Below are positions 49,602 to 60,601 of a stretch of 64,000 nucleotides of DNA, piece by piece. The notes below the pieces were generated by a model. It did no database searches. It saw only the letters and a list, made by a program, of their open reading frames with translations, and was not told the DNA's origin. A program made the position numbers and the translations under genes. Source of the stretch: Gemmatimonas sp. (GTDB lineage Bacteria > Gemmatimonadota > Gemmatimonadetes > Gemmatimonadales > Gemmatimonadaceae); NCBI GenBank assembly GCA_965279375.1, contig OZ257156.1, positions 2,208,001-2,272,000 of the forward strand. The letters are read 5' to 3'. Position 1 is the stretch's first letter. Each line of letters begins with the position of its first letter.

Positions 49602-51662
49602 ATGGCAGGTGAGCCTACGTCCAGCGCCAGTGTGAGTTCGGGAAGCGACCGTCATTCCGATCGTGAGTTGCCGATTGGGGATGCCCTGCCGCAGATCATC
49701 GACATGTTGCCGTACGCGGCCGTGCTCTTCGCTGCGGACGGGCGTCTGCGCTTCTTCAACGCGCCCGCACGCTCGGTGTACGTCATCGATGAGATCGCCG
49801 CGCCCAGTTCGCAGACGGCGGAGCAGGTGCTCGGCGAGCTGCGGACGTACGCGCTTCCCGCGATGGCGCGCGTTCGCGAGTCGGGCACCTCGGAGAGCAC
49901 CACCCTGCATCTGAGCACCGATCGCTGGTTCGACATGCGCGTGATTCCGTTGATCGACGACATGGTGTACGTCGGCGCGGCCGATGTGACGCTTCGTGAG
50001 CGTCGCCGCGAAGCGCTCGAAGTTGGCGAGCGACGGCTGACGGCGATGTTCGCGCTGATGCCGGCGTCGGTTAGGGTGGCCCAGCTGTCCGGTCGCATCG
50101 AGCAGATCAGCGAGACGGCCAATCACGAACACCCGATGCCGCGTCCGGAAACGTTGCGCGAGCTGTGGACACGCGATGCGCCGGTCGATCTGTTGAGTGG
50201 CAAGGCAATTTCTTATTTGGATTGCCCGGGCGTACGCGCGATGGCGGGTGAGACCGTGCGCGGCGAGCTCCTGCACGTGCAGCGCGGCGGTCTGCAATCT
50301 CCCCGCGTGATCGATGCGTGGGCGTCGCCGCTGCGTGATCACGCGGGCAAGATCACCGGCGCCTTACTGCTCGACCGTGATGTCACCGATCAGGTGCGCG
50401 CCGAGCAGGCACTGCGCGACGAGCGTGCAGAGGTGGCGTCGCTGCGAGAGCAGGTGGCGCGCGAGGCCGATCGTATCGAAGCGTTGGTGGAGGAGCGAGC
50501 CCGTGAGCGTCTCGAGTTGGAGGAGACGCGTTCCCGCGATCGGCGATTGGCGGCGATGGGCCAACTCGCCGCGGGCGTCATGCACGACGTGAACAACTCG
50601 CTCAATCCGATCATGGCGGCGTCGTTTCTGCTCAAGCATTTCGCCGAGTCACCGGACGCGGTGCGCGACTATGCGGACCGTATTGCGAAGGCCGCAGAGA
50701 CGGCGGCGGCGACCGCGTCGCGTGTCGGACGATTCATTCGTCAGGAGCCGACCAGCATCTCCGCGAGCGAGCAGTTGGATCTGGCGAAGCTCGGGCACGA
50801 AGTACTCGATCTGACGGAGCCGATGCGCCAACGGTTGGCGCGCGGCGAGAACGAGGTGCGGGTGGTACGCCTACTGGACGGCCCGGTCTGGACTCGGGGC
50901 CTTCCCGGCGAGATTCGCGAAGCGCTCCTGAGCCTCGTCCAGAACGCCATCGATGCAATGCCCAAGGGCGGTACGCTGACCGTGCGGGCGTACGCGGAGG
51001 GCGATGAGGCGTGTGTGGCAGTTCAGGATAGCGGTGTCGGGATGACTGCAGACGTGCGTGAACGCGCGTTCGAGCCATTCTTCAGCACTAAGGGTGCTGG
51101 AGGAACCGGCCTCGGCCTGGCGGAGGTGTACGGCATCGCGCGACGGCATCGTGGCTCCGCGGCTATTGTAACAGTGCCTGGCGCAGGCACCACGGTCACG
51201 TTGCGTCTGCCGCTGGCGAGCGATGAGCTCTCCGACGCTGCTTTGGTCCCATCGACTGCGCCTAAGGCAGCGACCGTGCCGCAACGCGTGCTCGTGGTCG
51301 AGGATCACGAAGATGGACGGCGACTCGTGCGCCGAATGCTCGAGTCCCACGGGCACATCGTCGATGCGGTCGCGCTCTGTGCCGAAGCGCGAGAAAAGCT
51401 CGCCAGCAGCGAAAACGTGCCGTACAATCTACTTTTGACTGATGTGGGACTACCGGATGGGAGCGGGTGGGACCTGGTGTCGTACGCTCGGCACCATGTG
51501 CCGGGAATGCGTATTGGCGTGATTACGGGGTGGGAACCAATGGTCAGCGCCGACGATGCCGTCGGTGTGGAATTCATCCTGCGTAAACCATTACGCGCTG
51601 CTGAGTTGCTGGATCACGTTGCGGGCCGAATATCGTCCGCGCAAACCGAGTCAATTTCATGA
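49602..51662 (+). CDS. Soluble PAS-domain hybrid histidine kinase/receiver
   Basis: PAS-like regions, LAAGVMHDVNN H-box, NAIDAM, DSGVG, FEPFFSTK, GTGLGL, C-terminal receiver (VEDH, LTDVGLP, KP). Confidence 0.92.
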   Translation: MAGEPTSSASVSSGSDRHSDRELPIGDALPQIIDMLPYAAVLFAADGRLRFFNAPARSVYVIDEIAAPSSQTAEQVLGELRTYALPAMARVRESGTSESTTLHLSTDRWFDMRVIPLIDDMVYVGAADVTLRERRREALEVGERRLTAMFALMPASVRVAQLSGRIEQISETANHEHPMPRPETLRELWTRDAPVDLLSGKAISYLDCPGVRAMAGETVRGELLHVQRGGLQSPRVIDAWASPLRDHAGKITGALLLDRDVTDQVRAEQALRDERAEVASLREQVAREADRIEALVEERARERLELEETRSRDRRLAAMGQLAAGVMHDVNNSLNPIMAASFLLKHFAESPDAVRDYADRIAKAAETAAATASRVGRFIRQEPTSISASEQLDLAKLGHEVLDLTEPMRQRLARGENEVRVVRLLDGPVWTRGLPGEIREALLSLVQNAIDAMPKGGTLTVRAYAEGDEACVAVQDSGVGMTADVRERAFEPFFSTKGAGGTGLGLAEVYGIARRHRGSAAIVTVPGAGTTVTLRLPLASDELSDAALVPSTAPKAATVPQRVLVVEDHEDGRRLVRRMLESHGHIVDAVALCAEAREKLASSENVPYNLLLTDVGLPDGSGWDLVSYARHHVPGMRIGVITGWEPMVSADDAVGVEFILRKPLRAAELLDHVAGRISSAQTESIS

Positions 51663-52261
51663 CGGATCTCCCGTCGACTATTCGAGTTCTTGTGGCTGAA
51701 GACAATGCGCTGGAGCGCTCCACTCTCGTGGATCTGCTCGGCGTGCTTGGCCATATGGTCGTTGCCGAAGTGGAAACCGGCGCCGACGCCATCGCGAAGG
51801 CACAGCAGTTCACGCCCGATGCGGTGCTGCTGGACGTGCACATGCCGGGTGCCAGCGGTGTGCAAGCTGCAGAGGAAATTGCGCACGCGCTCCCCGGTAC
51901 CGCTGTGGTCCTCGTCACTGGCGATCTGTCGCTGACGCTCTCAGCCGCAGACGTATTGCGCAGCACCGCCGTCGCGTTGCTGGCCAAGCCGACACCACCG
52001 GCCACGCTCGACGCGACGCTGCGGATGGCCGTCATTCGGGCGCGTGAACTGTTGACGGCGCGTCGCGAAGCCGCCGATGCCAAGCAGCAGCTCGAGTCGC
52101 GCAAGTTGATCGAACGCGCGAAGGGCATTCTCCTGCGTCGCACCGGCAGCAGCGAGCAGGAAGCGTATCGTATCATGCAGCGCAGCAGTCAGGACCGCTC
52201 CGTGCCGATGGTGGACATCGCGCGGGCCGTCATCGACAGCGAGCCTGGTATGAAGAGCTAG
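51659..52261 (+). CDS. ANTAR-domain response regulator (PdtaR/EutV-like)
   Basis: Receiver (AEDN, LLDVHMP, KP) plus RKLIERAKGIL...EQEAY..MQRSS ANTAR domain; ATGA-coupled to the kinase. Confidence 0.93.
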   Translation: MTDLPSTIRVLVAEDNALERSTLVDLLGVLGHMVVAEVETGADAIAKAQQFTPDAVLLDVHMPGASGVQAAEEIAHALPGTAVVLVTGDLSLTLSAADVLRSTAVALLAKPTPPATLDATLRMAVIRARELLTARREAADAKQQLESRKLIERAKGILLRRTGSSEQEAYRIMQRSSQDRSVPMVDIARAVIDSEPGMKS

Positions 52262-52386: not shown

Positions 52387-52686
52387 TCAGAACGGCGGTG
52401 GCGGCTCTGCAGGCTTGACCGGATCGCTTGGGCCGCCGGTCGGCCACAGCTTGTGATGCACTTCGTCGATCCAGTCCACGAGGCCTACGCTGTTGGGCTT
52501 TTGAGTGTTCACCCATTTCAACAACGCCTGCAGCTTCTCTCGCGTCTTCGTGTGTTCGACCTTGAGCGAGTCCAGCGACGTCTCGAGCGTGGACACACGC
52601 GTGATCAGTCCGTCCACGCGCGAATCCTTGCCGCAACCTGTCACAAGCACCGCTACGGCTAGTACGAACAGCGTGCTTCGTTTCAT
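52387..52686 (-). CDS. Small coiled-coil lipoprotein with Pro-rich tail
   Basis: MKRSTLFVLAVAVLVTGC lipobox, heptad pattern, C-terminus DPVKPAEPPPPF; GGGAG RBS. Confidence 0.8.
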   Translation of the reverse strand: MKRSTLFVLAVAVLVTGCGKDSRVDGLITRVSTLETSLDSLKVEHTKTREKLQALLKWVNTQKPNSVGLVDWIDEVHHKLWPTGGPSDPVKPAEPPPPF

Positions 52687-52712
52687 CTGCAAGGCTCCCG
52701 CGTTGAGAGGAG

Positions 52713-55601
52713 TCAACGGTTCGTCGGGCGCAATCGTTCGATAGCTCCCACGCGCGTCCTAAATTGCACGGCCTCGTTAGGCTTGTCTAGCGAATCTGCG
52801 ACGCGTGCGCGGAGCTCGAGACTGCGTCTGAGAAACGCGAGGTAGATCTGCGGCTGAACGTGCTCGAGATGTGCGGCGGTCTGCGACGCATCGGCGAAGG
52901 CGCCTCGCGCGAACTGCAACTCGGCCAGCGTCATGCGCTCGACGCCCAACGGCTCGAACAGTTCGTAGGTGAGCGAGTCACGCCGTGCCGACGGTGCGAG
53001 CTGCCCATATGCCGCGATCGCGCCGGTCGTATCACGCACGGCCAGCAGCAGTCGCGCACGCATCGCCTGCGCAAAGAGCCGCTCACGTCGACCGCCCGTG
53101 CGCGCGACACTGTCGCTGATCGCACTCATCGCGCGAAGGCGCGCCGTGTCGCCGGTGAATGCGTGCCACAGTCCCAGCACCCAACGTGTTTGCGGACTCG
53201 CGCGTTCGTACGACGCGCCGTATGCCTTCTGCGCGAAGCCGGCAGCTTCGTCGGCCTTGGGCGCCATCAGCGTTCGGTCCACGCCGGCCATCGCGTCGAT
53301 GATGTAGAGCGCGCGCGCCTGCGACGTACCGGCGGCAACGGTGGAATCGAGCAGCGCGCGGAGCTCTGTGTCGCGATGGGTTGCGACGAGCAGACCCTGC
53401 AAGTGCAGTAGCGCAGACCATCGGACCCCGGCGGCTGTCGTCGTCGACTGCAGCAGCGCGCGCAGTCCATCTTCCGCGCAGGTGGGATACGCAAAGTGCG
53501 CCAACAGCTCGCGTGACGCGGCGAGTACGGCAGGGGCATCCAGCTGCACGGCATCCTTCCAAACCGGCGCATCCCCGCGCACGCACGCGGACATCAACGG
53601 CAATTCGCGCACGAGCGACGGCTCCGCACCAAGCGAATTCAGCATCGCCACGATCGCATCGCCGCGCGCCACATCGCCGCGTCGCAGCGCAATCTCCGCG
53701 AGATGAAAGAGCGGCGGCGTGAATGCCGAATCGCGCGCGATCGCTTTGTTCAGCCAGTGCTCCGCCGCCGAGTCAGGTGGCGCCGCCGGTCCGCCAAGCA
53801 GATGATGATGCACCTCAGCGAGCGCCATCGCGGCTTCTGGATTTTCGTGGTCGCTCTCGAGCAGCTTTCCGAGTACGAGACGCGCGGAGTCCGCCTTGCC
53901 TTGCAGGTAAAACAGCAGCCCGTTCGCAAACGCCCGATGGCGCGCGGGCAGTCCGGCGCCACGCTCACTTGCCAGTGATGCCAGCGACTCGGCTTCATCG
54001 AGACGCGATTCCCAGCTGGCCGCCTGCGCGCCGCGAATGGCCGCAATCGCGAGCGCGCTGTCCTCGTGTACGGCACGACGAAAGAGCTCGAGCGCCAGCG
54101 CAAAGTGCGACTGCCGGTACTCCCGCTCTCCCTGAATCCACAGTGCCACGGCACTGGGCGACCGCTGCGTGAGATCGCCGAGATCGATGCGGCGCGTGGG
54201 GTCGAGCAGGCGCGGGAGCAATCGCGCGGCAGCGCGCAGTCCAAGCGTTGGCACCGAGACCGTTGAGTCACCGCTCGCACTCTCCTGCGCAACGAGCGAA
54301 TCCCCTTGCGCGTCGTGCAGTCGCAACACGACTTCCGTGCGTCCACCACGTCGCGAGATGGCGCCGTCCACGTAGTGCAGCGCACCGCGCTCGCGCGCGA
54401 TCTGCCCCGCCACGTCAGCCGTAAGCAGCCGGAGGTCCTGACGCATAGCCGGAGCGAGACGGCTGTAGCCGTCGATGACCCGCAGCGGCTCGGCGTGCTC
54501 GAGCGACGCGCTGATCGCGATGGCAACGTCCCAGCCGAGTGCGCTCGCGTCGGCCGAATCGCTGCTGCTCTGCAGCGGAAGCACCACGACGCGATTGCGG
54601 TCGAGTACGGGCGCTCGCTGGGACCACCAAACGCCAACGGCAGCGGCGAGCGCTAGGCATAGCGCTGCGATGAACATCGGGCGTGCGCGTGACGGACGCG
54701 CGGGTTCCGCCACGGTCGCGTGGGACGAGGACGGCGTGATCGTGCCCACGCCGTACGACGGCGTGGTGGGATTCGCCAATGCGGCTGCGAGTTCGTTCGC
54801 CGACGTGAAGCGATCCGCGGGGACCTTCTCCATCGCACGGTCGAGAGCGGCCAGCACGTGCGGCGGCACCGTGGGGCGCACGATGGTAAGTGGCGTTGGG
54901 CGATCGCTGATGTGACGCGCGATGACGGCGTGCGGCGTAGCCGCCGTGAACGGAGGGTCGCCCGCCAGCATTTCGTAGAGCACACAGCCCAAGCTGTAGA
55001 TGTCGCTGCGCGCGCCGACTTCCGAATCGGCCGATGCCTGCTCGGGGCTCATGTAGGCAACCGTCCCCACCGCGAATCCGCTGTCGGTCAAGCGCTCGGC
55101 GGCATCGCCAACCACACGAGCGACGCCGAAGTCCGTCAGCATTGCGTGTCCCGACGAGAGCAGGATGTTCTCCGGCTTCACGTCGCGGTGCACGACCCCT
55201 TGCTCGTGCGCATAGGCGAGCGCGCTCGCGATCTCGGATGCGATGCGTACGGCATCGGCGACCGGAAGCTGACGCTCTCGGCGCAGCCGTTCACGCAATG
55301 GTTCGCCACCGATGAACGGCATCGCGCAGAAGACGTGCGGTCCGCGCTGCCCCCATTCGAGCACCGGCACGATGTTCGGATGCTGCAACCGCGCTTCGAT
55401 ACGAATCTCCTGCTGGAAACGCGCGGCGCCGACACTGGTCGCGATCTCCTCGCGCAGGACTTTAATGGCAACCGTGCGATCGTGCCGAAGGTCGCGCGCA
55501 CGATAGACCACTCCCATCCCACCGCGACCGATTTCGCCTTCGATCGCGTAGTCGTCGCCGAGAGCTCGCTGCAGAGAATCGAATTGCTCGTCCACGCTCA
55601 T
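52713..55601 (-). CDS. Membrane Hanks-type Ser/Thr protein kinase with TPR-like ectodomain
   Basis: GRGGMGVV, VAIK, HRDVKPEN, DFG, GT..YMSPE, DIYSLG; one TM; long helical-repeat C-terminus. Confidence 0.95.
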   Translation of the reverse strand: MSVDEQFDSLQRALGDDYAIEGEIGRGGMGVVYRARDLRHDRTVAIKVLREEIATSVGAARFQQEIRIEARLQHPNIVPVLEWGQRGPHVFCAMPFIGGEPLRERLRRERQLPVADAVRIASEIASALAYAHEQGVVHRDVKPENILLSSGHAMLTDFGVARVVGDAAERLTDSGFAVGTVAYMSPEQASADSEVGARSDIYSLGCVLYEMLAGDPPFTAATPHAVIARHISDRPTPLTIVRPTVPPHVLAALDRAMEKVPADRFTSANELAAALANPTTPSYGVGTITPSSSHATVAEPARPSRARPMFIAALCLALAAAVGVWWSQRAPVLDRNRVVVLPLQSSSDSADASALGWDVAIAISASLEHAEPLRVIDGYSRLAPAMRQDLRLLTADVAGQIARERGALHYVDGAISRRGGRTEVVLRLHDAQGDSLVAQESASGDSTVSVPTLGLRAAARLLPRLLDPTRRIDLGDLTQRSPSAVALWIQGEREYRQSHFALALELFRRAVHEDSALAIAAIRGAQAASWESRLDEAESLASLASERGAGLPARHRAFANGLLFYLQGKADSARLVLGKLLESDHENPEAAMALAEVHHHLLGGPAAPPDSAAEHWLNKAIARDSAFTPPLFHLAEIALRRGDVARGDAIVAMLNSLGAEPSLVRELPLMSACVRGDAPVWKDAVQLDAPAVLAASRELLAHFAYPTCAEDGLRALLQSTTTAAGVRWSALLHLQGLLVATHRDTELRALLDSTVAAGTSQARALYIIDAMAGVDRTLMAPKADEAAGFAQKAYGASYERASPQTRWVLGLWHAFTGDTARLRAMSAISDSVARTGGRRERLFAQAMRARLLLAVRDTTGAIAAYGQLAPSARRDSLTYELFEPLGVERMTLAELQFARGAFADASQTAAHLEHVQPQIYLAFLRRSLELRARVADSLDKPNEAVQFRTRVGAIERLRPTNR

Positions 55602-56152
55602 GGAGGCGTCTTGGAGAGTGAGTCGAGCACGAGTCTGAATGTCGGGTCGATCGGAGGTATGGTGCCGGCGCTATCGGCCGACAGCAGCCGGCGGAACAGC
55701 GTCTTGGCGTTCACGGGCGTGATCGCGTGCAGCGCGACGGCAGCACGGGTACGATAGGCACGTTGGAAATTCGCCACCGCGCTTCCGACGATGAACGCAG
55801 AGTCGCCAAGCGGACGGAGCGCCTGGTCGGCCGGGCTCTGTCGATCGAACTGCTCGCGCATTCTTCGGAAAGTCCTGCCGGTCGAGCGGGCGAAGTTCTG
55901 GCTGATCGAGTCCGGTGGTCCGTCGAGCGCACGGGTGAGCGAGGGCACCACGGCTATGCCGCGTGCAACGACACTGTCGCGCTCCCCGTCTACACACTCC
56001 TCGCAGGTGAGCCATCGCTCGACGCGCTGCCAGTCGGGGCTTTCGACGCGACTGCGGCTCGTGTCTGTTCTGCAGGCAACGGCGACGGTGCTCAACAGGA
56101 GGAGTATGAACAGATGGCTGCGACGTATTGCGACAACGAACTCTGCGTTCAT
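55598..56152 (-). CDS. Hypothetical CxxC lipoprotein (HEAT-like helices)
   Basis: Start MNAEF ATGA-coupled to the upstream gene; lipobox AVAC; WLTCEECVDGE. Confidence 0.7.
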   Translation of the reverse strand: MNAEFVVAIRRSHLFILLLLSTVAVACRTDTSRSRVESPDWQRVERWLTCEECVDGERDSVVARGIAVVPSLTRALDGPPDSISQNFARSTGRTFRRMREQFDRQSPADQALRPLGDSAFIVGSAVANFQRAYRTRAAVALHAITPVNAKTLFRRLLSADSAGTIPPIDPTFRLVLDSLSKTPP

Positions 56153-57501
56153 TGGCACAGCACCGGAGGAGGGGTGGGCTTCGGACTCAGCACTGGCCGC
56201 ACGTCGGTGGACAGTGCTGGACATGTCGCGGTGGCGTACGGATCGCACGGACAAATGTTCGGGCCCTGACTCAGGTCGGCGTTGCGTTTGATCCACGACC
56301 GTCCATCCACGTGCATGCGATAGACCTGACCGAGCGTCAGTCGTTCTCGACCATCGAGCCCCGCGGCCGACCCGGGATTGACGAACATGACGTTGTCGCT
56401 GGCAAACCCATGCACTCGGTTGATGTGACCGGTGTCTGGTGCGATCAGTCCCAGTGCGTGTCCGAACTCGTGGGGGATCGTGGTGGATACTGCCCAGTTG
56501 CGCGAGATGAGAATGACGTTGGGTTCGCAGAAGTAACCGCGATTGATTCCGTCGATTCTTTCGATGTAGTAGATGTTCAGTTTCTGCGGATCCGGGGCGA
56601 CGTTCGTGGGTAGGTTGGGGATCTGCGAGCATTGATCGAACGTCGATGGCAGCAGTTGGCGAATCGTCGTTTGCATCGTTGGCGGGAATACGATACCGGC
56701 ACGCGCGTTTCGCAGGTCGCTTTCCGTGGCGAGCAACCCTGCGTCAACGAACTTTTTTGCCGAGTCCTGATGTATCAGGTCCACTCCGAGGACCACCTGC
56801 AGCGGAATCCGAATCGGAGGTCCGGCATCCACCGCAGTCACCATATCCTGATTGGTGCTCCAGGACATCGGGTGCCTGAGCAACGGGCGCGTGGACTCGG
56901 TGAACACGTTCGCCTCGGCGCGTAAGCACCCGCTGCTGCCGTTGATCTCACGCAGTGGAGCACTCGACACGAAGCTGGTGATGCGGTCGTAGTCGCAGTC
57001 GCTTGCATACTCGCCACTCAACATCGCGACGGCCGGCAAGTCGCCCGCCACATACGTCGCACTCACTTGGTCCGTCGGCGCCACGGCTGACGCGACCACC
57101 GCAACAAACGCGGTTCCCGTCAGCGTGCCGTTGGTGACGGTGAGCTTGATGACTTGGCCTGGTGAAAGTCCTCCGGGCATCGTGACGATCGCATCGCTTT
57201 TAGTGCCGACGATGGTGGGCGCGGTGGTCGACGCCGACCACGTCAGCACACCGGGATCGAGCGGTGCCCCTGTCGCGTCTTCCGAAACGACCGTGAGACG
57301 AAAGCTCAGGGGTGTGCCGGGTGCCGTGGCCCGTACCTGCACTACCTCGGGCAGGATGAGCAGGTATGGCGGTTGACGGAGGTTGAGGAAGGCCAAGCCC
57401 TGATTGCAGCCGCTGCCGATGAGCAGTGGCGCGAGCAGCGCGCACACCACGAGTCGACAGCACCGCACCACGTCTCCGAGACGAGCATTGGTCTGCACCA
57501 T
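56149..57501 (-). CDS. Lipoprotein zinc metalloprotease, pappalysin (M43)-like
   Basis: Lipobox GSGC; LNIYYI, HEFGHALGL, Met-turn NVM, LTLGQVYRM; GAGGAG RBS. Confidence 0.75.
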   Translation of the reverse strand: MVQTNARLGDVVRCCRLVVCALLAPLLIGSGCNQGLAFLNLRQPPYLLILPEVVQVRATAPGTPLSFRLTVVSEDATGAPLDPGVLTWSASTTAPTIVGTKSDAIVTMPGGLSPGQVIKLTVTNGTLTGTAFVAVVASAVAPTDQVSATYVAGDLPAVAMLSGEYASDCDYDRITSFVSSAPLREINGSSGCLRAEANVFTESTRPLLRHPMSWSTNQDMVTAVDAGPPIRIPLQVVLGVDLIHQDSAKKFVDAGLLATESDLRNARAGIVFPPTMQTTIRQLLPSTFDQCSQIPNLPTNVAPDPQKLNIYYIERIDGINRGYFCEPNVILISRNWAVSTTIPHEFGHALGLIAPDTGHINRVHGFASDNVMFVNPGSAAGLDGRERLTLGQVYRMHVDGRSWIKRNADLSQGPNICPCDPYATATCPALSTDVRPVLSPKPTPPPVLCQ

Positions 57502-57573: not shown

Positions 57574-59055
57574 CTACGAGATCGGCTTTCCCGGGGGCGG
57601 CCCGGACACCTGCTTCACGAGCTGATAGAGGAACTCGAGGCCGTCGTAGTACGACTTCACGCGCAGCTTCTCGTCGCGTCCGTGCGCGTTCGTTTCACCC
57701 GGCGCGGAAAAGATGCCGCTCACGCCGTAGGTGGGGATGCCGGCCGAGCGCAGGTACGCGCCGTCCGTGGCGCCGGTGGACATCGTGGGGATCACCGGCA
57801 CGTCGTTGAACATCTTCTTCGTGAGCGACGTGGTGACGGCGAGCAACGTCGGATCGATCGCCGCAGTCTTCTTGCCGAACCGGTCGCCACGCACCTCGCG
57901 CATCTTCACCTTCACGCCCGTGTCGGCCACGACGCGCTCGATGGTCGCCTTCACGTCTTCCGCTGTGGACGTAGGCACGATGCGGCAGTTCACCGTGGCG
58001 ACGGCGGTCTGAGGCAAGGCGTTATCCGCGTGGCCAGCGGCCAATCGCGTCGCGACACAACTTGTGCGCAGCATCGAGGCGTAGCGAGGATCGGTGGAGA
58101 TGATGCGTGCCGCCGCGGTGTCCGCCGGATTGGCGACGATCGCGCGCATCGCCGCCGCGATGGATGGGATCTCGACCTTGGAAGTTTGCGCGAAGAACGG
58201 ACGCGACACGTCATTCAGGTCTACGGGGAATACGAACTTCTCGAGCCGTGCGAGCGCGTTGGCGAGCTGATAGATCGCGTTGTCCTTGCGCGGCACGCTG
58301 GAGTGGCCGCCCGTGTTCAGCGCGGTCAGCGTGAAGTTCACCGGCACCTTCTCGGCGGCCTGCACCGAGTGAAAGAGCGGCTTGTCGTCCTGCAGTGTGC
58401 CGCCGCCACCTTCGTTGATCGCGTACTCGGCGTCGATGAGCGCCTTGTGATTGTTGATCAGCCACGAGACGCCGTTCGATCCACCGCCCTCTTCATCGGC
58501 CGTGAGCGCGAGAATGAGATCGCGCTGCGGCACGTAGCCTTCCTGTTTGTAGCGCAGCAGGTTGGCGACGAACATCGACGCCATCGACTTGTCGTCGGCC
58601 GTACCGCGTCCGAGGAAGTAACCGTTCTCTTCCACGAGCGTGAACGGGTCGCGCGGCCAGTCGCTGCGCAGTGCGGCCACGACATCGAGATGCGCGAGCA
58701 GCAGCAATGGCTTTCCCTGTCCCTTGCCATGATAGCGCACCACGAGATTGCCCTTCGTCGGGCGATCGGGTGGCACGAGCACCTGCACGTCGGCCGCGGG
58801 GAATCCGGCATCGAGGAATCGCTTGGCCATCGCGCGTGCGGCCTTCGTCACATCGCCAACGGAGTCAACCGTATTGATCTCGACCAGCTCCTTGTACACG
58901 GCACGCGCCGCCTGTTGCTGCGGTGTGAGCGTGGTCGGCGCACCGGGCGCGGACATGCCGGGAAGCTGCGCGTGCAGCGCGGGCGCGACGAGCGTGGACG
59001 CAACAAACGCGGCAGTAACGGCGACGGCCGCAGCGGTGTGACGACGGACGGGCAT
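57574..59055 (-). CDS. Exported M20/M25/M40 metallopeptidase
   Basis: AHLDVV, GRGTADDK, ADEE, NEGG, GGHSS, GATDG, AHGRDE; signal peptide. Confidence 0.92.
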   Translation of the reverse strand: MPVRRHTAAAVAVTAAFVASTLVAPALHAQLPGMSAPGAPTTLTPQQQAARAVYKELVEINTVDSVGDVTKAARAMAKRFLDAGFPAADVQVLVPPDRPTKGNLVVRYHGKGQGKPLLLLAHLDVVAALRSDWPRDPFTLVEENGYFLGRGTADDKSMASMFVANLLRYKQEGYVPQRDLILALTADEEGGGSNGVSWLINNHKALIDAEYAINEGGGGTLQDDKPLFHSVQAAEKVPVNFTLTALNTGGHSSVPRKDNAIYQLANALARLEKFVFPVDLNDVSRPFFAQTSKVEIPSIAAAMRAIVANPADTAAARIISTDPRYASMLRTSCVATRLAAGHADNALPQTAVATVNCRIVPTSTAEDVKATIERVVADTGVKVKMREVRGDRFGKKTAAIDPTLLAVTTSLTKKMFNDVPVIPTMSTGATDGAYLRSAGIPTYGVSGIFSAPGETNAHGRDEKLRVKSYYDGLEFLYQLVKQVSGPPPGKPIS

Positions 59056-59241
59056 GGGTCGGCTGGTGAGGGTTAAACGCGAAGGTACCAGACGGAAGGA
59101 TCTCCGGCGAGGGGACGAATCGATCATTCGGGATTCCTTCACCGCGGCGCCAGGAGTGGCATCAAGGGCGGCACCAATGTTGCCCGCCCATGTGGCTGCC
59201 GGCCGGTGGCCGGCTCTCTCTTTCGCCGCGAGGCACGCACC

Positions 59242-59530: not shown

Positions 59531-60484
59531 TCAGCGGCCGCCGGGGAGTGTGGCGACGCCCGTGGCCGGATTGAACGTGCTGCCAGCCGGCAGCACGTGC
59601 ATGACCATGCCGGTGGCACCAAGCACACCCTGAGGTGTGATCGCGCTCTTGCGTGCGTCGTAGATGACCGCGACGCTGGCTCCGGCGATGCGCCACGTGC
59701 CGTCCGGCTGCACGATCAGCGCGGTGGACTCGTCAACGCCAACACCCAGATGCGTGTCGCGCTCGAGCACGAGGCTGATCAGGCGATTGTGCCGCTTCCG
59801 TCGCAGGAAATGCTGGTCGATGATGGCGTTGCCGATAAGACCAAAGCCGTCCGCGGTGGCGATGTTGTTTCGGTCGATGGTGCCCATGGACAATGTGGTG
59901 TCCGGGCGCGTGCCTCCGGGGTGCTTTTCGTCACCCGTGAGCATGATGCTCGACATCACGGCGGCGCCGGCTGATGTCCCGCCGATCACCGCGCCCGCGC
60001 GATAGCGATCGGCGATCGCGGCCGCGGTGCGCGAGCCACCGAGTGCCGCAGTGAGGCGAGATTGATCGCCGCCGCCAAACCAAACGCCGGTGGCGTTGCG
60101 CACCGCCTGCACGATCGAGTCGGCATCGGCACCGTCACGTTGCACCCAGAGACTCACGGCTTCGGCGCCAAGCGCGCGCAAATCCTTCGCCTTGGCCTCA
60201 CCGCTGGCCTTTCCATCGGCGCTGGCCATCGCGAACACGACGATGCGCGCCTTGCCCGCGCCGCCCGCCAACTCGACGAACTCGCGCACGAGCGCGGCAG
60301 GCTGCGGGCCGCCACCGACGATGTACAGCGATCCCCGCGCGCTGCTCTGTGCCGACGCCGACGGGACAGCGAAAGCGATGGCGAGCGTCAGTAACGCAGC
60401 GGCAAATGCATTCCTGCGTGCACGCGAGGCAAAGGAACGCGTGGACGTGAGAGCAGACGCAAGCAATGACTCGAACGGAGACAT
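59531..60484 (-). CDS. Exported cyanophycinase (peptidase S51)
   Basis: IVGGG, FGGGDQ, GTSAGAA, IDQHF..R.R..RL, GVDEST; signal peptide ending ASA-Q. Confidence 0.88.
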   Translation of the reverse strand: MSPFESLLASALTSTRSFASRARRNAFAAALLTLAIAFAVPSASAQSSARGSLYIVGGGPQPAALVREFVELAGGAGKARIVVFAMASADGKASGEAKAKDLRALGAEAVSLWVQRDGADADSIVQAVRNATGVWFGGGDQSRLTAALGGSRTAAAIADRYRAGAVIGGTSAGAAVMSSIMLTGDEKHPGGTRPDTTLSMGTIDRNNIATADGFGLIGNAIIDQHFLRRKRHNRLISLVLERDTHLGVGVDESTALIVQPDGTWRIAGASVAVIYDARKSAITPQGVLGATGMVMHVLPAGSTFNPATGVATLPGGR

Positions 60485-60601
60485 GATGAGGGCAGTCGAG
60501 GGGGGCGGGAGCGGATCAATGCTCCGCAAAGATGCGCTCCCCGACCGCCGATGGGCGAATCCGACGTGCGTATTCGTTGCCAGATGACCCAACCCGCTGA
60601 A

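Follow-up and report, generated by a model that had tools for sequence, protein, structure and literature searches.

A conserved cassette around a receptor kinase

Which ligand might a TPR-bearing receptor kinase of a double-membrane bacterium sense, and how might that ligand be set free? The question is raised by four genes of Gemmatimonas sp., which lie in the 64,000-nucleotide stretch analysed here (the window; contig OZ257156.1, positions 2,208,001 to 2,272,000). All four open reading frames (ORFs) are intact and on the minus strand, and encode a protease (P0002; 57501-56149, 450 amino acids), a CxxC protein (P0001; 56152-55598, 184 amino acids), the kinase (P0003; 55601-52713, 962 amino acids) and a small protein with a Pro-rich tail (P0004; 52686-52387, 99 amino acids). 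The two ATGA overlaps (56152/56149 and 55601/55598) and the 26-nucleotide gap with GGGAG noted in an earlier, sequence-only reading of this DNA are present in the sequence. That reading took the small protein or its tail for a ligand that the protease releases or destroys. We find that the core of the cassette is smaller than the four-gene set and consists of the TPR-ectodomain Hanks kinase and the small Pro-rich gene. The cassette is a real, conserved class and apparently an undescribed one, since we found no description of it in literature searches whose coverage stopped short of most subscription journals and supplements.

Conservation was assessed by profile searches of genomes from the phylum of the window, and relatives belonged to Gemmatimonadota in 17 of 18 titled records, the remaining title reading only 'bacterium'. 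Among 200 genomes of the family, the CxxC protein was matched in 8 and the protease in 10, mostly side by side, and in nine of these loci they are joined by an orthologue of the whole kinase (37-46% identity) and by a small ORF with a Pro tail. Ten further loci emerged when 401 genomes of the phylum were searched with a profile, and another 23 from ectodomain-only scans (L093 duplicates L087); weak matches in two genomes (G106 and G010) are not cassette loci. All four genes stand together in 30 loci (29 including the window, plus L124), and the set is kept through changes of order and strand. Homologues of all three non-kinase genes adjoin orthologous kinases elsewhere, which is the linkage on which the sequence-only reading had staked its proposal.

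At E<1e-100, 54 of the 401 genomes together had 61 matches to the ectodomain profile, and the protease profile was strong in about 20. We examined 59 of the 61 matches, and the four that end at a contig or fetch edge leave 55 assessable loci, including the window and 11 found earlier. A small Pro-rich ORF stands beside the receptor in 47 of these 55 loci under a strict rule (L126 being assigned by hand), and in 50 when three PP/PPP cases under the threshold are counted. By comparison, 22 of 1052 long ORFs (about 2%) qualify under a similar rule, and no Pro-tail ORF lies downstream of any of 35 other kinases in the window genome.

The receptor and its predicted orientation

P0003 bears PF00069, the sole family name among the four window proteins. 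Its Hanks Ser/Thr kinase domain, predicted to be cytoplasmic, lies at 54801..55550 on the minus strand (residues 18-267, E 1.7e-51) and contains the GxGG, K, HRDxKPxN and DFG motifs. A hydrophobic transmembrane helix (54621..54674, minus strand), with Arg residues before it and thus a predicted N-in, C-out topology, leads into a 635-residue ectodomain (52713..54620, minus strand), in which an alpha/beta domain is followed by a TPR solenoid, the candidate peptide receptor; its profile matches TPR structures. The intact transmembrane kinase with a TPR-like ectodomain that the sequence-only reading described is thereby borne out, and on its domain, catalytic motifs, helix and predicted external domain we class P0003 as a Hanks-type receptor Ser/Thr kinase. 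In the orthologues the catalytic motifs are intact and the transmembrane helix is kept, irrespective of the protease partner. A Cys pair in the ectodomain (residues 673 and 708) is invariant in 78 of 78 sequences, which, together with the retained helix, suggests that the sensor faces outside. In one locus (L128) a BTAD domain stands in place of the kinase on the cassette ectodomain, and the Pro-tail peptide gene is retained.

Several loci show variations around the receptor. In the BTAD locus (L128:4581-7934) the order is BTAD activator, transmembrane segment and ectodomain, then the Pro-tail peptide gene, with other BTAD genes on the flanks. ORFs with a kinase domain only, in many cases on the opposite strand, are found close to the cassette in 17 loci (L067, L068, L069, L079, L081, L084, L086, L101, L102, L104, L108, L111, L127, L129, L133, L135 and L140) and may encode soluble partner kinases. 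Tandem or convergent paralogous receptors are found in L079, L084, L080 and L082, with duplicated small genes or internally duplicated helix-Cys units.

The Pro-rich unit as the common part of the small proteins

P0004 (52387..52686, minus strand) is a predicted lipoprotein precursor with a lipobox cysteine at C18, an Lpp-like coiled coil, a Trp-bearing helix, a Gly-Gly spacer and a Pro-rich tail, of which approximately residues 88-99 (DP...PPPPF; 52390..52425, minus strand) form the predicted mature signal. The tail is conserved in the four closest homologues, and comparison with four close homologues points to purifying selection on the gene (uncorrected pN/pS 0.35-0.65). Single-sequence searches with P0004 returned nothing in 150 family genomes, and homologues of the small gene were identified by position only. 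An assignment of P0004 to the Lpp/alanine-zipper lipoproteins was rejected, as it scores 19 bits against a cut-off of 108 and ends in Phe rather than Lys; only its coiled coil is Lpp-like.

Across the loci, the small proteins have almost nothing in common except the Pro-rich unit. They occur as lipoproteins, as transmembrane-anchored forms, as leaderless and often Lys-rich proteins, as pure tandem repeats and as a helix gene with a separate tail gene, and 39 of the 50 precursors carry neither signal nor anchor. Pure tandem repeats of 9-13 residues are found in 10 loci (L107, L113, L114, L116, L120, L126, L130, L133, L137 and L138), and in L136, L141 and L142 the tail is a separate ORF of 27-29 amino acids after the helix gene. 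The DP/EG-x-PP units that build these repeats and micro-ORFs resemble the tail of P0004. A Cys pair is common to lipoprotein and leaderless precursors, and several repeat units contain no Ser or Thr. None of the small proteins matched a modified-peptide model.

Among the less usual precursors, those of L127, L129 and L135 are leaderless proteins of 116-118 amino acids with two internal polyproline runs in a helical protein. Another (L117:3611-3941) is leaderless, histone H1-like and rich in Lys, Arg and Ser, with a polyproline tail at its end; similar basic N-termini occur in L028, L034 and L070.

An exchangeable protease that matches the precursor

An endopeptidase adjoins the receptor in 32 of the 55 loci and comes from six unrelated groups, namely metzincins (15 loci), S8 proteases (7), C14 caspases (6), leaderless zincins (2), an astacin (1) and a C39_2 peptidase (1). 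Among 35 other kinases of the window genome, local profiles placed an endopeptidase within 1.5 kb of one. Metzincin and CxxC-HEAT lipoprotein are found together in 15 of the 55 loci, the window among them; the two leaderless zincins are followed by a TPR-S or a trypsin protein, and the proteases of L110 and L139 lie on the opposite strand and may be incidental.

Precursor type co-varies with protease type. Leaderless tandem repeats with at least two Arg junctions occur in all six caspase loci but in none of 32 metzincin loci, and the five caspases inspected have an intact His-Cys dyad. The two Asp-Pro repeat precursors adjoin a different zincin. Anchored precursors, on the other hand, are found in 9 of 15 metzincin loci against 2 of 35 others (8 of 14 against 2 of 33 in a strict subset). 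The caspases show no visible signal, nor do four S8 proteases beside leaderless precursors. The caspase of L137 forms one fusion protein with nSTAND1 and WD40, and an nSTAND1-WD40 gene, truncated at its start by the contig end, is present in L107.

These observations divide the sequence-only reading. Its lipoprotein/metalloprotease composition does not define the class, given that most precursors are leaderless and that metzincin and CxxC protein are optional and replaced elsewhere by unrelated, often leaderless proteases. Its other element, a Pro-rich tail as ligand and a protease as releaser, gains from the comparison: the tail is the sole common part and occurs alone as repeats and micro-ORFs, and anchored precursors are enriched beside the exported metzincin.

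The metzincin and its CxxC partner

In the window the protease role would fall to P0002 (56149..57501, minus strand), a probable exported lipoprotein with an Ig-like N-terminal region (matches at residues 40-140) and a catalytic domain whose predicted fold lies between M43 and M12B. All lipoprotein assignments in the cassette follow lipobox patterns only, and that of P0002 is non-canonical at position -3. The zinc motif, H344-E345-x-x-H348 ... H359 (56425..56472, minus strand), is conserved: across 18 orthologues H344, E345 and H348 are invariant and H359 is at least 90% conserved, and HEFGH, third His and Met-turn are all kept. With these features and its modelled fold (pLDDT 77), P0002 is assigned to the metzincin clan, with a third His 11 residues on instead of the canonical 6. 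Fold searches gave ulilysin (Z 13.4, root mean square deviation 3.1, 172 aligned residues), 6o38 (13.2) and venom reprolysins (12.7 and 12.6), all tied within 1 Z. No Pfam family, M43 included, matched P0002, and M12B gave weak matches in 3 of 9 cases; neither the pappalysin/ulilysin (M43) nor the reprolysin (M12B) affiliation is clearly favoured. We take 6o38 to be a bacterial metalloprotease with its dedicated chaperone bound; its title reads only 'chaperone-substrate complex'.

P0001 (55598..56152, minus strand), the CxxC-HEAT lipoprotein, is translationally coupled to the protease gene through the ATGA overlap and is modelled as all-helical (pLDDT 92), and its C50 and C53 are at least 90% conserved in 91 homologues. 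The HEAT hidden Markov model did not match P0001 itself and matched some homologues weakly, the best fold hit (Z 8.5) is no better than helical proteins score by chance, Foldseek gave no match and Atlas matches were all below 0.9. At E<=1e-10 the P0001 profile retrieved 805 representatives, which include some ordinary HEAT-repeat proteins, and among 25 long matches scanned the module is often N-terminal in larger lipoproteins with RCC1, Big_1, CarboxypepD_reg or SusD. Wherever it was seen in the cassette, the CxxC-HEAT protein adjoins the metzincin, whereas L103 has the protease without it; most likely it serves the metzincin as chaperone, inhibitor or adaptor. No homology was found between the two, and no fusion of both was seen among the 150 best CxxC matches, in which the HExxH pattern did not occur.

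A protein-database search with the protease profile returned at least four proteins. Related metzincins occur in L145-L148 with no receptor within the fetched 9-15 kb, and the metzincin partner in L145 is CxxC-like but lacks the CxxC motif in the part shown. Among 15 other genomes of the same genus the sole protease match is in G444, where protease and kinase lie in pieces at a contig end (L072).

A released peptide as the proposed ligand

In our view, the genomic evidence makes a strong case for a peptide ligand set free by proteolysis. In the reading that we prefer, and to which we would give a probability of roughly 55%, the cassette is a propeptide-protease-receptor kinase system, in which the protease frees the Pro-rich tail and the tail binds the ectodomain and switches the kinase, much as in the PROPEP-metacaspase-PEPR system of plants. 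To judge from the signal sequences, precursor, metzincin and CxxC protein of the window would be exported as lipoproteins, and the kinase would span the inner membrane with its TPR ectodomain outside; as each of the three soluble partners is a predicted lipoprotein, shedding of the tail by the metzincin could take place where the ectodomain is able to meet it. Held or folded by the CxxC-HEAT lipoprotein, the metzincin may cut the precursor near the Gly-Gly spacer and give a Pro-rich tail of about 12 residues, which would bind the TPR groove and turn the kinase on. The kinase would then phosphorylate a target presumably encoded elsewhere, because no gene for one is conserved in the locus. That TPR solenoids act as peptide receptors is well established, as in the RRNPP family. 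In favour of this reading we also count that the tail behaves as a separable constant, found as repeats alone and as separate ORFs, and that ectodomain and peptide persist where BTAD replaces the kinase. In the sister cassettes, a leaderless precursor would be cut inside the cell by a caspase, a subtilase or another zincin, and would reach receptors after membrane damage or by some export route.

A number of observations weigh against the released-peptide reading. The leaderless state of most precursors is the chief one, and at 6 of the 15 metzincin loci an exported protease stands beside such a precursor. A C39 (PCAT) peptide exporter was considered as their way out and rejected: any C39 is present in only 24 of 80 genomes, and a C39 peptidase-ABC exporter, as a double-glycine leader pheromone would use, was not found in the window genome (G000) or in near-complete carriers including G332, G485, G361, G293, G308 and G299, which leaves the route of their precursors unexplained by C39. 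By a heuristic, the charge pattern in L023, L025 and L091 suggests a cytoplasmic tail. No protease was seen among the near neighbours in 23 of the 55 loci, some of which lie on short contigs, five loci lack a tail-bearing gene (L105, L123, L125 and L134, and L122 with a helix only), and the Arg repeats of L138 have no caspase in their vicinity. The co-variation is also less independent than its counts imply. In a quick locus tree the caspase/Arg loci form one clade, so that the Arg match is a single event, and loci with anchored precursor and metzincin fall at two or three places, which makes for few independent events; Fisher p values overstate the association between such related loci, and a profile built from metzincin loci favours metzincin loci.

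A complex prediction of ectodomain and mature P0004 from 32-row alignments gave ipSAE values of 0.06 and 0.00 (mark 0.32) and has no weight either way. A search for a peptide shared between cognate partners in 29 loci found none, the tail scoring against protease, CxxC protein and ectodomain as non-cognate pairs do.

The leaderless forms suggest an extension of the preferred reading that is possible but less likely than not. The cassette could act as a cytokine-like alarm, in which an immune protease, such as the caspase-STAND-WD40 protein of L137, cuts a multi-copy leaderless precursor and the peptides from the damaged or lysing cell activate TPR receptor kinases of neighbouring kin. As an idea, release by lysis or membrane damage would explain the leaderless precursors, and it fits the immune-type proteases; the window cassette would then represent the same pair of ligand and receptor in an exported form under sheddase control.

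Alternative explanations

That envelope genes merely cluster by chance beside one of many kinases is refuted by the linkage counts. The window genome, a single contig of 5.31 Mb, does hold 36 Hanks kinases by motif, and gene order and strand vary between loci, but the four genes stay together in the 30 loci through these rearrangements, with 22-45% identity in distant ones, and the two controls gave 0 of 35 and 1 of 35. A different possibility reverses the sign of the signal: the intact small protein would bind the ectodomain and keep the kinase off until the protease destroys the inhibitor. The same linkage data apply to it, the window precursor appears anchored in the compartment of the ectodomain, and the periplasmic domain of PknS seems to restrain autophosphorylation (PMC13147305). 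However, in a cell at rest the leaderless repeats and micro-ORFs of 27-29 amino acids would have no access to the ectodomain, and many identical copies with cleavable junctions suit the production of an agonist, for which reasons we consider de-repression unlikely.

No better are the prospects of an intracellular or scaffolding role, in which the Pro-rich motif would bind either a kinase (the receptor's own domain or a soluble enzyme) or, as substrate decoy or inhibitor, the protease itself, and the ectodomain would sense something else. Although the 39 leaderless precursors, the neighbouring caspases and S8 proteases without visible signal and the stand-alone kinase-domain genes near 17 loci would all suit it, the same tail sits on clear lipoproteins, that of the window included, the Cys pair is common to lipoprotein and leaderless forms, the peptide gene stays where BTAD replaces the kinase, and units free of Ser and Thr recur. 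Doubtful to a greater degree is a defence module of the gasdermin or Pepco type, in which cleavage would remove an inhibitory Pro-rich tail and free an amphipathic, Trp-rich, membrane-damaging helix, with the kinase as regulator. The caspase-like, trypsin-like and S8 partners are of the kinds given for defence effectors, and loss of a tail that is 20% proline activates Pepco (PMC12642450); the caspase-nSTAND1-WD40 protein of L137 and the patchy distribution, in 54 of 401 genomes, are also in keeping with it. Yet many precursors are only Gly/Pro repeats without a helix, or have the tail as a separate gene, so that what stays constant is the tail rather than the helix, and PADLOC matched none of the four window proteins (the kinase searched as ectodomain only).

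Relation to known systems

The closest parallel to the caspase sister loci is found in plants, where metacaspases cut after Arg or Lys and Pep1 is released at Arg69 (10.1101/2020.03.09.983940). In the PROPEP1-metacaspase 4-PEPR1 system described there, a precursor is cut after Arg by a caspase-clan protease and its C-terminal peptide binds a receptor kinase, a layout that the caspase loci match. There is no homology of peptide or ectodomain, however, the cassette having TPRs and the plant receptor leucine-rich repeats; the cassette is bacterial and operon-encoded, and in the window the protease is an exported metzincin and the precursor a predicted lipoprotein.

In Xanthomonas PknS-EcfK, too, the Hanks kinase is a transmembrane protein whose TPR region lies in the periplasm and has no known ligand (PMC13147305), but the cassette has peptide and protease and lacks the long N-terminal extension. 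A PknS/ECF43-type kinase-sigma pair was rejected, since no ECF sigma gene lies beside the window kinase and none is conserved in 41 loci compared. Six TIGR02999 ECF sigma factors above the cut-off do occur in the window genome (G000 contig C1: 64636, 1754893, 2003868, 3336287, 4622760 and 4806309), each beside another Hanks kinase in a PknS-EcfK-like arrangement, and one of them adjoins the closest paralogue of the cassette ectodomain.

In RRNPP (Rap-Phr) systems a small precursor matures by proteolysis and meets a TPR receptor; those receptors are cytoplasmic, and the peptide must be imported. The cassette also has a small precursor, predicted proteolytic maturation and a TPR candidate receptor. 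We do not assign it to RRNPP, as its TPR region comes after a transmembrane helix whose flanking charges are of the positive-inside type, contains an invariant Cys pair that points outside and is fused to a kinase. Sheddases of the M43 pappalysin/ulilysin and M12B ADAM/reprolysin families share with P0002 the metzincin fold (Z 11-13) and the proposed release of a ligand for a receptor kinase, whereas P0002 has the longer third-His spacing, the Ig-like N-terminal region and no Pfam assignment. In 6 of 16 members the ectodomain weakly matched TIGR04510, 'putative peptide modification system cyclase' (E 1.9e-8; 33 bits, the cut-off being 400). Members of that family stand beside a small peptide gene; the cassette has a kinase where the family has a cyclase, and we found no paper on the TIGR04510 system. 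Finally, the gasdermin, Pepco, MBL and EACC1 defence modules resemble the cassette in that caspase-like, trypsin-like and S8 proteases can replace one another next to a small substrate, with the STAND fusion of L137 as a further likeness (PMC12642450). They differ in that the word 'kinase' is absent from the text describing them, and in that the cassette substrate lacks a toxin fold and goes with a receptor in the membrane. PADLOC 2.0 gave generic caspase and CHAT matches in the sister locus L130.

For TPR-bearing receptor kinases of double-membrane bacteria, ligands are not known, a point that the 2026 PknS paper leaves open (PMC13147305). In about 50 of the loci described here, the gene for a candidate ligand adjoins that for its receptor. 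The ligand is small enough for chemical synthesis and is accompanied by a candidate processing enzyme, to which the caspase loci add a readable predicted cleavage site; the question becomes directly testable on these grounds. If the released-peptide reading is true, the combination of precursor, protease and receptor kinase that plants and animals employ is at work in bacteria too, and immune proteases may be linked to warning neighbours and not only to cell suicide. The alarm version, if true, would parallel inflammasome/IL-1 and PROPEP/PEPR logic and give a first ligand class for periplasmic-TPR Hanks kinases.

Genomic setting

Neither a transcription factor nor a phosphatase, both of which the sequence-only reading had found missing from the locus, recurs as a conserved neighbour in the 41 loci compared, and no additional gene recurs in the flanks. 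Examination of the cassette revealed neither a promoter-like site nor an excess of terminators. Upstream on the same strand lie M20 and S51 peptidase genes (window 57574-59142 and 59531-60592, minus strand), and downstream, convergent to the cassette, a hybrid PAS histidine kinase and a REC-ANTAR regulator (window 49602-52261, plus strand); none of these is conserved with it. Elsewhere, the window genome has five PP2C_2 matches.

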